From: Clostridia bacterium
GTDB lineage: Bacteria > Bacillota > Clostridia > UMGS1883 > UMGS1540
Assembly (NCBI GenBank): GCA_017436645.1
Contig: JAFSCR010000029.1
Span: forward strand, 24,360-88,359
DNA: 64,000 nt
Direction: 5' to 3'
Part shown: one piece after another, positions 9,919 through 57,862 of the stretch
Position numbering within the stretch: the stretch's first letter is position 1
How the letters are laid out: every line of letters begins with the position of its first letter
Notes under the pieces: model-generated
Databases searched by the model: none
Seen by the model: only the letters and a program-made list of their open reading frames with translations
What the model was told of the DNA's origin: nothing
Position numbers and translations under genes: made by a program

Positions 9919-10181
9919 ATATGCACCGCATATAAAGACTGTACAATCTGGATGATAAACCTTAACAATGAATTGACAACTGTCGTTGTCATGAATTGGA
10001 TTTCATCCATGAATTGTTGTAAACAACATGATTTGAATTGCCTTAATGCACCGAAGGTGCAATTCATGAGCCACAAGGCTCAATTCGTGAAATCTGTGAT
10101 TTCAATTCATGCCAAAGGCAATTCATTGCGGTCACAGACCGCATATAAAGACTGTATAATCTGGATGCCAGTCTTTTTTTG
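9919..10181. repeat. Mirrored ATGAATT / AATTCAT motif array interleaved with variable mini-hairpins, bounded by 30-nt direct repeats
   Basis: ATGAATT at 9968, 9991 and 10009, with a degenerate copy at 10028. AATTCAT/AATTCGT at 10061, 10082, 10104 and 10120. Direct repeats at 9925-9954 and 10138-10167 match 29/30. See findings. Confidence 0.8.
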
Positions 10182-44424: not shown

Positions 44425-44852
44425 GGATAGGAAAAAATGTTCAGAATGAACAAACTGAGCCAAAGCCGTAGGCTTTGGGATACCCGAAGCTGTACTTCGT
44501 CAAAGCAAAGTCCACACGCTACATTTTACCGAATCGGTAAAAATCCGCTTTGCTTCCTTGCTTTTCCTCCTCCCCAAAAGTCCGGTGGACTTTCCGGGGC
44601 CCCCGAAAGTCGCAAGACTTTAAGGGGAAAAGGAGTAACCGAGCGAAAAGTGACTGTTTGCGAAAGCAAACGGAACATAAGCGAGAGTTGCGACGCCGCT
44701 GAGTGGCGAAGTTTGTTTTATAGCAAAAAGGCATATAAAAAAGAAAAACTTCAATTATTTGAAGTTTTTCTTCGTTTTAGTCACAACATCTATTTTTTAT
44801 GTCTTTATTTCTTTAAAAAATCTGTCTTTTTGCGGTCTGGACTTTTTTTACA
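44425..44852 (-). repeat. Modular structured repeat, long copy (L2), inverted relative to L1
   Basis: The reverse complement carries the same M1, M2, hairpin and M3 modules as 36053-36283. It also has an additional hairpin-rich arm of roughly 220 nt. Confidence 0.8.
44735..44771 (-). terminator. Terminator after the ceramidase-like gene
   Basis: GAAAAACTTCAA-TTAT-TTGAAGTTTTTC 12-bp stem, with a T-run on the minus strand. Confidence 0.8.
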
Positions 44853-52359: not shown

Positions 52360-52590
52360 TGAAAAAAACGGAGCTTTTGCAATACAAAAACTCCGCACAA
52401 AAAAGCCTTTTAAAACCTTTTTCTCCGTCCTTTTGCCTGAGAGATTAACCCGAAAACGGGCTTTACACCTTCGGCATCCTTTTGATTCCCTTGGGAACCG
52501 GGACTTCTCCGGAGCGCTATCTGTATGCAGTCACTGCTACTGCGCCTGAGAGCATTACTCCTTCGGCAAGGCATCCGCCTTTCTCCTGCA
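52360..52590 (-). promoter_or_regulatory. Tandem glycine riboswitch with a terminator expression platform
   Basis: Minus strand, aptamer 1: GGAGAA...GCCGAAGGAG.AA...CTCAGGCGCA. Aptamer 2: TCCGGAGAA...GCCGAAGGTG.AA...CTCTCAGGCAAAAGGACGGAG. These are followed by CGGAGTTTT...AAAAGCTCCG plus T7 (52397-52363). Confidence 0.85.
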
Positions 52591-53635: not shown

Positions 53636-54661
53636 TTACTCGTCCTCTTTCGTATTGATAACGTGATTATACATTTTTGTGACGCTCTCGTTCATGTTAA
53701 CAGGCACAATCTTTATGTTTGGTTTTTGCTTTTTATAAAGCACAAAAATTTGATGTGCAAAGCCTTGCCCCATCCATTCTATATCTGCAAAGTCGAGCAC
53801 GACCTCTTGGAACTTTTCAAGGCTCATCAGAACCCTTTTTGCCTGTGACCTTGACACAGGTGAAGCATCAAAAATATTTTTAAGCGGAATAATGGTTTTT
53901 GAAAAGCCTCCGTTCACGTCTGCATATTTATCAAATACTTCCTTGCTCTTTTTATGTGTATAATTGGAAAGCTCCATATAAACCACGGTACCTTTTAAGA
54001 ACTTTTCCGAAACATCCACAATTCTCTTCCGGTCAAATTTATCGGCCATAAAGAGTTTGTCGCTTGAAAGAATATTAAAATAATCCATAAGCTTTGAACT
54101 AAAGAAAATGCCTTCTCCCGAATGATTGTCTTTATCTGTTGTGAGTTTCCCCTTAAACAGTTCGCAAATAGCATCGGATAGCGACGATAAGTTAAAATGG
54201 TTTTTAATTTTTTTAAAAATACCAACGCCGTCATCCCCGATGACAACGGCAGTTTTCATATAATTTCTTTTTACCAGAATATAAAGATTTTTTGCCTCGG
54301 AATGATCAATTACATTATTCACCATTTCGCTGAATGCATATTCCCAAATTTCCTGTACGTTTGGCGCCAAATCTGCAATATGATTTTTAAGGCTCATATT
54401 ATATATGTTTGTTTCGTTTTTAATTTCATTTTTGTTTTTGGAAAAATTATATTGAAAAGTGCTGTCCGTCAGTTCGTATGTTCCACGTTTTACCTTCTTA
54501 ATTACCTTTTCCTCGACCAACTGTTTCATATAAGTGTGCACAGTAGAACGGTTAATCCCAAAAGTTTCCGAAACAATCTGAGAGGGATTTTCAACGTTTT
54601 GATCTATTTTTTCAAGAAGATACAGTATGATTCCCCTCTTTTTTTCATCATTGAACCGCAT
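53636..54661 (-). CDS. Fusion protein: wHTH, GHKL/HATPase_c-like ATPase and a STAS-like (DUF4325) domain; AT-rich islet
   Basis: HTH (FGINRSTVHTYMKQLVEEKVI). ATPase motifs (EMVNNVIDHS, VIGDDGVGIF, GEGIFF). C-terminal VLDFADIEWMGQGFAHQIF is typical of DUF4325. Confidence 0.6.
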   Translation of the reverse strand: MRFNDEKKRGIILYLLEKIDQNVENPSQIVSETFGINRSTVHTYMKQLVEEKVIKKVKRGTYELTDSTFQYNFSKNKNEIKNETNIYNMSLKNHIADLAPNVQEIWEYAFSEMVNNVIDHSEAKNLYILVKRNYMKTAVVIGDDGVGIFKKIKNHFNLSSLSDAICELFKGKLTTDKDNHSGEGIFFSSKLMDYFNILSSDKLFMADKFDRKRIVDVSEKFLKGTVVYMELSNYTHKKSKEVFDKYADVNGGFSKTIIPLKNIFDASPVSRSQAKRVLMSLEKFQEVVLDFADIEWMGQGFAHQIFVLYKKQKPNIKIVPVNMNESVTKMYNHVINTKEDE

Positions 54662-57033: not shown

Positions 57034-57062
57034 AAAAGGACCGCATTGCGGTCCTTTTGTGT
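57034..57062 (+). terminator. Terminator after the LysR gene
   Basis: AAAGGACCGC-ATT-GCGGTCCTTT followed by a T-rich tract. Confidence 0.85.
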
Positions 57063-57100
57063 GTCGCAAGGATTATATTCAGCACGGCAGTCATAAAAAA

Positions 57101-57454
57101 TTAATTTGCATTGTTTTTGGCAGTTTTAATGGAAGCAATCAGCAAAATTCTAATGGTAGAACAAATTTTATTCAGACGTTTATATTGTGATGCATTAATA
57201 TAATTTGATTTATGCAGCATTTCAAGCCATTTTCCCGTTTCGCTTGCCTCTTTTAATGCGATTTCCAGTTTTGCAATGAAATCAGCTCTACTATGACCAT
57301 ATTTTGACTCGGCAATATTAGCGCATACGCTTGTGGCGCTTCGTCCGATCTGATTAGAAATTATAGTTTCTTTTTTATTTCGCAGTTCTTTTACTAAATT
57401 CAAAATTTCAACAGATAATTCCATCGAAAGATTTCCAAGTTTATCTTCTTTCAT
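57101..57454 (-). CDS. Four-helix-bundle protein (23S rRNA intervening-sequence protein family)
   Basis: 117 aa. The GRSATSVCANIAE...RADFIAKLEIALKEASETGKWLEML pattern is typical of this family. AT-rich. Confidence 0.8.
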   Translation of the reverse strand: MKEDKLGNLSMELSVEILNLVKELRNKKETIISNQIGRSATSVCANIAESKYGHSRADFIAKLEIALKEASETGKWLEMLHKSNYINASQYKRLNKICSTIRILLIASIKTAKNNAN

Positions 57455-57491
57455 ATCGGATTCACCTCTCTACTCAAAGTATACCATACAT

Positions 57492-57669
57492 TTGCACGAA
57501 GTGCAACATCATTGTTGCGAAGCAATACATCATTGATACGACGTATCACATCATTTGCGCAAAGGCGCAACATCGTTTTGTGTCCGCCAATGCGGAATGA
57601 TGTTGACCGCAAGCGGTCAAACAGTGTGCTCTCCTACGTTCGCAATGATGTTGTGTCCTGCGGACACAA
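57492..57669. repeat. Mirrored ACATCATT / AATGATGT motif array interleaved with variable mini-hairpins
   Basis: ACATCATT at 57506, 57527 and 57548; ACATCGTT at 57570. AATGATGT at 57596 and 57644. Unrelated 4-8 bp hairpins lie between the motifs. See findings. Confidence 0.75.
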
Positions 57670-57673
57670 ATAC

Positions 57674-57704
57674 AAAAAAAGCATCCCTAAAGGATGCTTT
57701 TTTT
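57674..57704. terminator. Bidirectional terminator downstream of tRNA-Arg
   Basis: A7-GCATCC-CTAAA-GGATGC-T7. Confidence 0.85.
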
Positions 57705-57706
57705 GA

Positions 57707-57783
57707 TGGCGCGCCGTAAGAGATTCGAACTCCTGACCTTATGGTCCGTAGCCATACGCTCTATCCAGCTGAGCTAACGGCGC
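57707..57783 (-). tRNA. tRNA-Arg (anticodon ACG), with encoded CCA
   Basis: Manual cloverleaf of the reverse complement: acceptor GCGCCGT/ACGGCGC, D arm GCTC..GAGC, anticodon stem TATGG/CCATA with loop CTACGGA, T arm AGGAG-TTCGAAT-CTCTT, and 3-prime GCCA. Confidence 0.93.
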
Positions 57784-57807
57784 ATGCTCTCTCGAGCTGA
57801 CCTAGGT

Positions 57808-57836
57808 ATTATACCACGGCTATTTGGAAAATGCAA
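57808..57836 (-). promoter_or_regulatory. Promoter of tRNA-Arg with an extended -10
   Basis: On the minus strand: TTGCAT (57836-57831), a 17-nt spacer ending in TGG, then TATAAT (57813-57808). Confidence 0.65.
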
Positions 57837-57862
57837 GTGTTTTTTTAAATATTTTAGAAAAT

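Follow-up and report, generated by a model that had tools for sequence, protein, structure and literature searches.

In a 64,000-nt stretch of DNA from a Clostridia bacterium (contig JAFSCR010000029.1, hereafter the window), a dense array of short repeated words and small hairpins lies at 57492-57704, between a tRNA-Arg gene and a small AT-rich gene of the PF05635 family. We found that this array is one copy of an unnamed element that occurs at no fewer than about 200 places in gut Clostridia genomes. The array is very probably a dispersed modular repeat element, and in the window it supplies both the terminator of the tRNA-Arg gene and the promoter of the PF05635 gene. Our reading as a whole, which we hold at a probability of roughly 0.45, is that the array is a modular element resembling the repetitive extragenic palindromes (REP) and bacterial interspersed mosaic elements (BIME) or the miniature inverted-repeat transposable elements (MITE), and that its units are recognition modules read on a single strand, probably of DNA.

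The original prediction, made from the letters of the window, described an 8-mer repeated in mirrored orientations between hairpins with unrelated stems, and these observations are correct. The words ACATCATT at 57506, 57527 and 57548 and ACATCGTT at 57570 stand where they were reported, with spacings of 21, 21 and 22 nt, and their reverse complement follows at 57596 and 57644. The listed hairpins are present, the array adjoins the tRNA-Arg and the AT-rich PF05635 gene as described, and the bidirectional terminator has a 14-bp stem at 57673-57705. A similar array at 9919-10181 had been proposed to follow the same grammar with other words; we refer to its type, built on TGAAT/ATTCA, as family 1 and to the CATCRT type at 57492-57704 as family 2. 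The family-2 array is not random, as word clustering, hairpin density and folding all lie beyond shuffled sequence. The sequence ACATCRTT matches 12 times in the window, six of them in a 146-nt stretch of the array; 4.46 matches are expected for the whole window and none of 100 shuffles reached 12. Perfect hairpins of at least 5 bp number seven per 200 nt both here and at 9951-10150, with a shuffle maximum of 4-5, and folding compared with shuffles gives z = -6.5 and -7.2 on the two strands.

To find related copies, we used the PF05635 protein of the window in a protein search that gave 80 loci in metagenome-assembled genomes (MAGs) of Oscillospirales, at 77-90% identity and several per genome. 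Essentially all 80 share the same upstream architecture, and 73 of them, together with the window, could be parsed automatically. A scan with a DNA pattern revealed at least 124 further places with the array. From the homologue loci and the scan we parsed 134 distinct arrays with a common grammar; their hosts are Oscillospirales MAGs of the Acutalibacteraceae and Oscillospiraceae, with several copies per MAG.

Read in gene orientation, which is the minus strand of the window, the order is the CCA end of a tRNA, a long terminator hairpin, a hairpin that we call P0 (TTGTGTCC-loop-GGACACAA), a left block, a centre, a right block and a promoter. The left block has two or three CATCRT linkers alternating with hairpins, usually three (A, B and hC). 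The centre repeats GGACACAAA and corresponds to GCGGACACAAA in loci of the PF05635 type. The right block is made of three to six inverted units, each AYGATG plus a hairpin, the second linker usually being ACAGTG. In PF05635-type loci the last hairpin is TTGCACTTCGTGCAA, whose first six bases are the -35 element, and it is followed by a 17-nt spacer, an extended -10, a Shine-Dalgarno sequence and the ATG. Unit length has its mode at 21 nt (219 of 427 units) and ranges from 17 to 25 nt, and the number and order of units vary even among loci with identical flanks. The copy in the window is laid out as follows.

57707-57783, minus strand: tRNA-Arg(ACG), found by ARAGORN and by the Rfam tRNA model at 64.1 bits
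57673-57705, both directions: bidirectional intrinsic terminator, 14-bp stem with an A-run before and a T-run after
57651-57669, minus strand: P0 hairpin, TTGTGTCC-GCA-GGACACAA on the gene-sense strand
57588-57650, minus strand: left block in gene orientation, delimited by parsing and covariation
57645-57650, 57621-57626 and 57597-57602, minus strand: left-block linkers CATCAT, CACTGT and CATCAT, from parsing
57627-57644, minus strand: hairpin A, decayed, from parsing
57603-57620, minus strand: hairpin B, TTGACCGCTTGCGGTCAA, from parsing
57583-57596, minus strand: hairpin hC, its 5' arm at 57588-57596, from parsing
57577-57587, minus strand: centre, GCGGACACAAA, a direct repeat of the P0 3' arm
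57492-57576, plus strand: right block, four units of mini-hairpin plus CATCRT; the hairpins on the plus strand are TTGCAC-GAA-GTGCAA, TGTTGC-GAA-GCAATA (which contains GCGAAGC), TGATAC-GAC-GTATCA and TTGCGC-AAAG-GCGCAA
57478-57506, minus strand: promoter of the PF05635 gene, from sequence and conserved in relatives
57501-57506, minus strand: -35 element TTGCAC, inside the last hairpin and followed by a 17-nt spacer
57478-57486, minus strand: extended -10 element TGgTATACT, from sequence
57462-57468, minus strand: Shine-Dalgarno sequence GAGGTGA, from sequence
57101-57454, minus strand: AT-rich four-helix-bundle gene of PF05635 / TIGR02436, 117 aa (Pfam E = 5e-26; NCBIfam E = 5e-28)

The element in the window starts directly after the encoded CCA end of tRNA-Arg(ACG) and the terminator is its outer long hairpin; a homologous long hairpin stands upstream of P0 in related loci that adjoin different tRNAs. 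The centre could alternatively pair with the 5' arm of P0. An exact GCGAAGC lies in the right block at 57516-57522 on the plus strand. The stretch 57618-57643, previously described as 25 unpaired nucleotides containing CTCCT, is actually a decayed hairpin of the class TACGAGC-GNA-GCGAGTA with tandem G.A pairs, and this class is intact in relatives. The protein encoded next to the array belongs to the family of the 23S rRNA intervening-sequence (IVS) proteins and of Avd from diversity-generating retroelements (DGRs). Its closest solved relative is PDB 2RLD (E = 5e-26, five chains), and PADLOC gave no match to it.

The hairpins are real single-strand structures maintained by compensatory change. 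We aligned 75 segments running from P0 to the centre, and RNAalifold recovers P0 and hairpins A and B from them. In the named local structure 92.6% of the cells are paired, compared to 79% in shuffles. Cells in which both partners have changed number 250 in hairpins A and B versus 73 in shuffles, with the observed value reached by none of 500 shuffles, and the signal breaks down once the partners are offset against each other by one to three columns. In stems of a single length class, four to five types of pair occur at positions 3-5, and there is hardly any variation in the outer T-A pairs or in the closing C-G pair. What the hairpins conserve is TT..AA ends, the closing C-G and GNA or GNRA loops, with variable stem middles. 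P0 is almost invariant in sequence, with 99.7% of its cells paired in the 75 sequences and loops of GCA, GCAA or GTAA; its changes amount to 13 U.G pairs and one compensatory change, all of which can be read on the gene-sense strand. The alternative helix between the P0 5' arm and the centre is 95.9% paired, in columns that are nearly invariant.

Long-range nested helices between the mirrored words, as originally proposed, were rejected because they show no covariation across the family. For the equivalent of the helix 57569-57577:57596-57604, the paired fraction is 78.2% compared to 77.7% in shuffles, 118 of 500 shuffles reach its covariation, and about half of the sequences leave two of the six positions unpaired. 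The linkers adjacent to the centre (L1:R1) give a covariation z of 0.1, and the best of 12 left-right linker combinations reaches a z of only about 3, which is not convincing in a test that ignores relatedness. The mirrored 8-mers are junction words of one unit in two orientations, not pairing partners. They consist of the 6-nt linker plus the conserved first and last bases of the neighbouring stems, and the words are complementary because the unit occurs in two orientations.

Loops and mismatches both give the blocks a preferred strand, and the preference flips at the centre. On the gene-sense strand the loops of P0 and the left block are GNA (36), GNRA (13) and TNC (2), and those of the right block are TNC (66), TYNC (24) and GNA (1), so that the strand with the C-GNA-G or GNRA loops is the gene-sense strand for the left block and the plus strand of the window for the right block. 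Across the family, the gene-sense strand of the right block has CTNCG 308 times versus 25 for CGNAG. It also has GCTTCGC 138 times and GCGAAGC not once, so that about one exact d(GCGAAGC) per array lies on the plus strand of the right block. A CATCRT linker follows each hairpin on the GNA-loop strand in both blocks. Mismatches read as G:T outnumber those read as A:C by 10 to 1 in P0 and by 14 to 4 in the left block, which additionally has a class of tandem G.A pairs on the gene-sense strand; the right block has 11 G:T and 22 A:C. This bias differs between left and right (Fisher p = 0.003), and the pooled mismatches favour the GNA-loop strand of each block by 46 versus 16 (p = 2e-4). The G-U pairs had previously been taken to point to the plus strand, a view that gives way to a strand preference that differs between the two halves of the array.

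The heptamer of these mini-hairpins is more stable as DNA than as RNA: d(GCGAAGC) melts at 76.5 C and r(GCGAAAGC) at 39 C (review, PMC13037366), and such hairpins act in single-stranded DNA at the origin of phage G4, at ssiA and at phage N4 promoters (PMC13037366). We infer that the units are single-strand recognition modules, and that they are more likely DNA than RNA because C-GNA-G triloops dominate, because no promoter reads the array, because the strand preference flips at the centre and because the orientation of family 1 is random.

The promoter survey bears on the second of these points. A sense promoter with a score of at least 10 is found in 76% of the arrays and an extended -10 in 81%, and antisense promoters over the arrays show no excess (3% versus 4.5% in shuffles). 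A divergent or antisense promoter, suggested by a palindrome round the -10 in some loci, was rejected on these grounds. The array thus lies between a terminator and a promoter. It is not the 5' untranslated region of the gene, nor is it an evident plus-strand small RNA gene. Both transcripts had been put forward for the window; the first is at odds with an array upstream of the conserved promoter of the minus-strand gene, and the second with the antisense figures. Where no PF05635 gene comes next, the promoter lies about 35 nt beyond the last hairpin.

The array and the PF05635 gene are associated mainly in one direction. The subfamily in the window almost always has an array upstream, and only 24 of the 105 DNA-pattern arrays (23%) precede a PF05635 gene; the remaining ones head unrelated small genes. 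The PF05635 gene is usually followed by tightly coupled variable cargo, comprising GNAT enzymes, AbiE-like ATPases, DUF4041-T5orf172 proteins, PD-(D/E)XK nucleases, WapI immunity proteins and many proteins with no Pfam match. A conserved leader fused to the start codons of the cargo was considered and rejected, as the identity before the ATG is only 0.35 compared to 0.275 at random, a value due to the shared strong Shine-Dalgarno sequence. Elsewhere in the window, an AT-rich gene at 53636-54661 on the minus strand (GC 0.31-0.38) has winged helix-turn-helix, HATPase_c-like and DUF4325 (STAS-like) domains and weak AbiEi-like PADLOC hits; it adjoins a conserved CofE-LysR pair and looks acquired.

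An intact co-oriented tRNA stands directly before 47 of 102 arrays (46%), with 19 anticodons represented. CCA is found at 80 of 107 junctions, mostly after intact or tRNA-like 3' ends, and about a dozen of the other junctions follow conserved 3' elements, here called E3a and E3b. These elements of about 45 nt are found where cassette genes have their 3' end, immediately ahead of the terminator that follows. Among the fetched loci (numbered with an L), E3a (TTCAGGCACATTTCATTCGTGTCATTAAGTTCAAACTACCCA) occurs at L168 163-186, in three copies in L172 and at L244 1954-1977, and E3b (CAGTTCTTTTTCGGACACGAATGACA) at L244 726-747 and in L170, L189 and L248. Both contain GACACGAATG, inverted in one relative to the other, and both are similar to the centre of the array. 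They may be what is left of former arrays or else a signal at the 3' end of cassettes.

Cassettes stand in tandem in L244, L234, L062, L050 and L277, where the terminator-plus-P0 segments are sometimes identical. Some loci show other arrangements. At about 7850-7945 in L179, two divergent family-2 arrays lie back to back with one bidirectional terminator in common, and one of them ends after two left units and is joined directly to a ribosome-binding site and ATG. In L079 (3354-3550), a P0-like hairpin and CATCGT units come immediately after the PF05635 stop codon. L032 and L071 each have a second, apparently disrupted PF05635 copy after the first.

The expectation that the grammar recurs with different words is borne out, since the TGAAT/ATTCA words of 9919-10181 define a second widespread family. 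Family 1, whose hairpins are of the form TG..CA, was found in at least 120 stretches with 63 mirrored instances. Its orientation relative to neighbouring genes is random (8/7/5/4), whereas family 2 is mostly co-oriented with both neighbours (19 of 32), and it has no link to tRNAs or promoters. A-rich or GNA loops point away from the centre in family 1 and towards it in family 2. Four unrelated loci of one MAG have near-identical family-1 copies, each about 290 bp long and edged by long terminator-like hairpins; their flanks are unrelated and no target-site duplication was found at their ends. The 9919-10181 array itself is flanked by a 30-nt direct repeat, ACCGCATATAAAGACTGTA[C/T]AATCTGGATG, at 9925-9954 and 10138-10167 with one mismatch, and the right copy leads into a terminator hairpin on the plus strand (AAAGACTG...CAGTCTTT and a T-run). 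It looks like an insertion with duplication into the terminator region between convergent AraC-family and membrane-protein genes.

The words by which we name array families are CATCRT, TGAAT and GATTACAT. A further word-plus-hairpin array, GATTACATAC/ATGTAATC, lies downstream of the PF05635 gene in L060 and L075 and at L011 3790-3835, where it adjoins a second copy of a tRNA-Tyr 3' end; GATTACATAC or ATGTAATC occurs two or three times between unrelated small hairpins, some with GAA or GGA loops. Mirrored TTCACT and then AGTGAA repeats with no obvious hairpins are found at L011 3870-3980 and L244 2020-2110, followed by the strong TGCTATAAT promoter of the next cassette. The window also has a third hairpin-dense stretch at 44426-44700, with six perfect hairpins per 200 nt (AAAGTCC-GGT-GGACTTT, AAAGTC-GCAA-GACTTT and TGTTTGC-GAAA-GCAAACG among them), the words AAAGTCC/GGACTTT and GCAAAC, and no Rfam match at gathering score.

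Searches with Rfam 15 matched only tRNA and a glycine riboswitch in the window, nothing credible over 57050-57850 at E up to 10, and only tRNAs and Gut-1 in the related loci. The riboswitch aptamer (RF00504, 49.7 bits) is at 52415-52522 on the minus strand of the window; the Gut-1 RNA (RF01706, 63.7 bits) adjoins a tRNA at L172 1822-1891, a few kb from the cassette row. The literature searched holds no description of the element, and no function of PF05635 beyond Avd and the IVS proteins.

How the units might work can be put as follows. Each word-plus-mini-hairpin unit would be a recognition module for a protein acting in trans. The protein would read the units of one block on one strand and those of the other block on the opposite strand, in DNA that is single-stranded or extruded, and this recognition may help cassette heads to spread and be shuffled where they flank tRNA 3' ends. 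With PF05635 as the most frequent neighbour of the array, its pentamer is the prime candidate for the partner. An iteron-like binding of protein had been kept open for the window, and of this we retain protein recognition in the modified form just described; a constant word next to a hairpin conserved in structure only speaks against a plain double-stranded iteron. That the units work at the DNA level in recombination or mobilisation we offer tentatively. In L011, a 1.1-kb unit of terminator, array, gene and cargo is flanked by a direct repeat of the tRNA-Tyr 3' end, which is clear in L011/L194 (21 nt, 1 edit). Like a MITE, the element is short, non-coding and multi-copy at unrelated loci, and its blocks are inverted, but its termini are not matching repeats.

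Several observations weigh against this reading. The tRNA direct-repeat signature is clear at one locus only, most fetched stretches stopping short of the far end; downstream of the gene in the window no remnant of the tRNA-Arg 3' end was found, and no repeat flanks this copy. Recombinases, HUH enzymes and transposases are not found consistently near the arrays, only 3 of about 400 fetched loci have an integrase homologue, and the element ends have no target-site duplication or terminal inverted repeat. An empty site was not recovered, either through the LysR neighbour (80 loci, with synteny ending at CofE-LysR) or by a look-up of exact proteins, in which each of the four contigs obtained has the module. 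The element had no match in viral, phage and plasmid collections, and a phage or plasmid origin was rejected on this ground. Taken on its own, the mismatch bias of the right block is weak (p = 0.08). The nearest-neighbour energies contradict the polarity of loops and mismatches, in that the right block favours the gene-sense strand in 100 of 134 arrays with RNA parameters and in 118 of 134 with DNA parameters; we judged this comparison uninformative because the stability of GNA loops is absent from the models. Finally, binding of the PF05635 protein to array units is pure conjecture on our part.

The strongest competitor among the other explanations is that the array acts as a structured RNA. 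This would be either a non-coding RNA made in antisense from the plus strand, with its 3' end at the bidirectional terminator, or a trailer produced when transcription of the tRNA or of the upstream gene reads through. The units would then be bound by an RNA-binding protein, giving a sponge or a regulator, or would hinder exonucleases in the manner of REP stabilisers. Strong covariation is what such an RNA would show, and so are the GNRA tetraloops (13 in P0 and the left block, 24 in the right block), the tolerance of G.U that P0, the left block and hC show on the gene-sense strand, the terminator that works in both directions and the folding of both strands far beyond shuffles. Yet antisense promoters are not in excess, and in the sense direction the array comes after a canonical terminator and before the gene promoter. 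Because the strand preference flips at the centre, any one transcript would have some of its units in the disfavoured orientation; the loops include more triloops of the kind that is weak in RNA than GNRA loops, no Rfam family matches, and family-1 copies lie in any orientation to genes. We consider a structured RNA unlikely.

We see still less probability in an attachment (att) site arm region, in which the cassettes would be small non-autonomous integrative elements accreting at tRNA 3' ends and the direct and inverted words would be arm-type sites for a tyrosine integrase and excisionase supplied in trans. The element does begin right after the CCA end at 19 different tRNAs, the opposite arm of the L011 insertion, flanked by its 21-nt tRNA-Tyr 3'-end repeat, also has words and hairpins (ATGTAATC twice), decayed tRNA ends precede further arrays in L021 and L050, and the L244 cassette row has a tyrosine integrase at its far end. 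But tRNAs whose core sequences are unrelated adjoin the same words, few loci have an integrase close by, no repeat of the tRNA end accompanies the copy in the window, and family 1 is not tied to tRNAs; known arm-type sites, moreover, are plain duplex repeats for which covarying hairpins are unneeded. Slightly less probable again is that the array works as duplex DNA, to regulate the adjacent promoter or to control its topology, be it as an operator- or iteron-like array phased at two helical turns (21 bp) or as a set of extrudable palindromes that buffers supercoiling between a highly transcribed tRNA and the cassette promoter. It would account for the modal period of 21 bp, for the inverted blocks and for an array that is always just upstream of a strong promoter, with the -35 in the last hairpin of PF05635-type copies. 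Sequence-specific duplex binding, however, fits poorly with palindrome half-sites that vary freely in units of 17-25 nt, and cruciform extrusion predicts no strand bias of mismatches and loops, which is nevertheless seen. The promoter stands off by some 35 nt at the arrays that lack a neighbouring PF05635 gene, family 1 is not tied to promoters, no Rep gene was found and the element is absent from plasmids.

If the reading of single-strand recognition modules holds, hundreds of genomes of uncultured gut Oscillospirales contain an unannotated, highly ordered non-coding element that heads variable accessory genes (GNAT enzymes, AbiE-like ATPases, nucleases, immunity proteins). It would open a way to study how accessory genes are gained and expressed at tRNA loci, would be an example from nature of chromosomal arrays of d(GCGAAGC)-type mini-hairpins, and would offer the PF05635 / Avd-like family a testable partner. 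There are practical consequences as well. The element breaks assemblies, many fetched loci beginning at a contig end a few hundred bases from the array; it offers ready-made strong terminator and promoter parts; and masking or modelling it is advisable in scans for non-coding RNA. It is conceivable, though we regard it as a long shot, that gut Clostridia have an integron-like cassette system in which small accessory genes sit in rows at tRNA 3' ends and are joined and shuffled at strand-specific arrays of DNA mini-hairpins and words, with Avd-like PF05635 pentamers as the hairpin-binding accessory factor. This would be the first non-DGR role for the very large PF05635 family.

Comparison with known systems separates the element from some of them. 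Iterons do not fit units that vary in sequence and length beside a gene for a 117-aa PF05635 protein and with no plasmid match, and type III (ToxI-like) toxin-antitoxin systems do not fit the order terminator, array, promoter, gene. Integrons likewise string together small accessory genes that are unrelated to each other and that each have a conserved structured site, and their attC sites are similar in that structure rather than sequence is conserved and a strand-specific folded single strand is the proposed active form. In contrast to integrons, each array cassette has its own promoter and many mini-hairpins take the place of one long imperfect attC hairpin; no integron integrase and no R/L boxes were found, and boxes of the GTTRRRY type were not seen in the array sequences. 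The G4 origin, ssiA and ssiB of RSF1010 and the promoters of the N4 virion RNA polymerase share with the arrays C-GNA-G triloops on stems of 5-7 bp, GCGAAGC, and, on our reading of the arrays, recognition on one DNA strand beside a short specific sequence (PMC13037366). Those are single sites in phage or plasmid origins, unlike the 6-10 units found here in chromosomal intergenic repeats, and no primase, Rep or N4-type polymerase is in evidence at the array.

BOX and SPRITE of pneumococci and the Correia elements of neisseriae are MITE-like repeats (review PMC10969869). Like them, the array is short, non-coding, dispersed and intergenic, and such elements cluster and insert beside one another. 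BOX (BOX A-Bn-C) is likewise modular with a variable number of internal units, and the terminator-like SPRITE and promoter-bearing Correia repeats likewise shape the expression of neighbouring genes. The array differs in having no known sequence relation to them, no terminal inverted repeats or target duplications that we could find, modules that are mini-hairpin units of 17-25 nt with constant hexamer linkers, and a strong link to tRNA 3' ends and PF05635 genes.

REP, BIME and REPIN elements of Proteobacteria are mobilised by RAYT, a Y1 HUH enzyme of the IS200/IS605 type. The array resembles REP/BIME in being extragenic, multi-copy and clade-specific, with the same grammar in different words per lineage. 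It has clusters of small hairpins in both orientations with conserved short motifs between them and a variable number of units, a hairpin with an adjacent short word of fixed polarity that would be read on one strand of single-stranded DNA, and a frequent position at the 3' ends of transcription units. It differs from REP, whose palindrome sequence is conserved, in that the stems of a single array are unlike one another; we counted 173 distinct hairpins in right blocks and 109 in left blocks. Its units form two blocks instead of alternating, and it carries a terminator and an outward-facing promoter. No RAYT gene was noticed in the fetched loci, which are MAG fragments only; the gene most often flanked by the array is PF05635. 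Interspersed mosaic repeats, MITE-like elements bearing promoters or terminators, and the accretion of cassettes at tRNA flanks are known kinds. Unreported in Rfam or in the literature searched are the anatomy, in which each of two inverted blocks combines diverse mini-hairpins with hexamer linkers that stay constant, the existence side by side of families that use different words, and the tie to PF05635 genes. The closest analogies to the proposed mechanism would be REP hairpins read by RAYT, or the arm sites of att regions.

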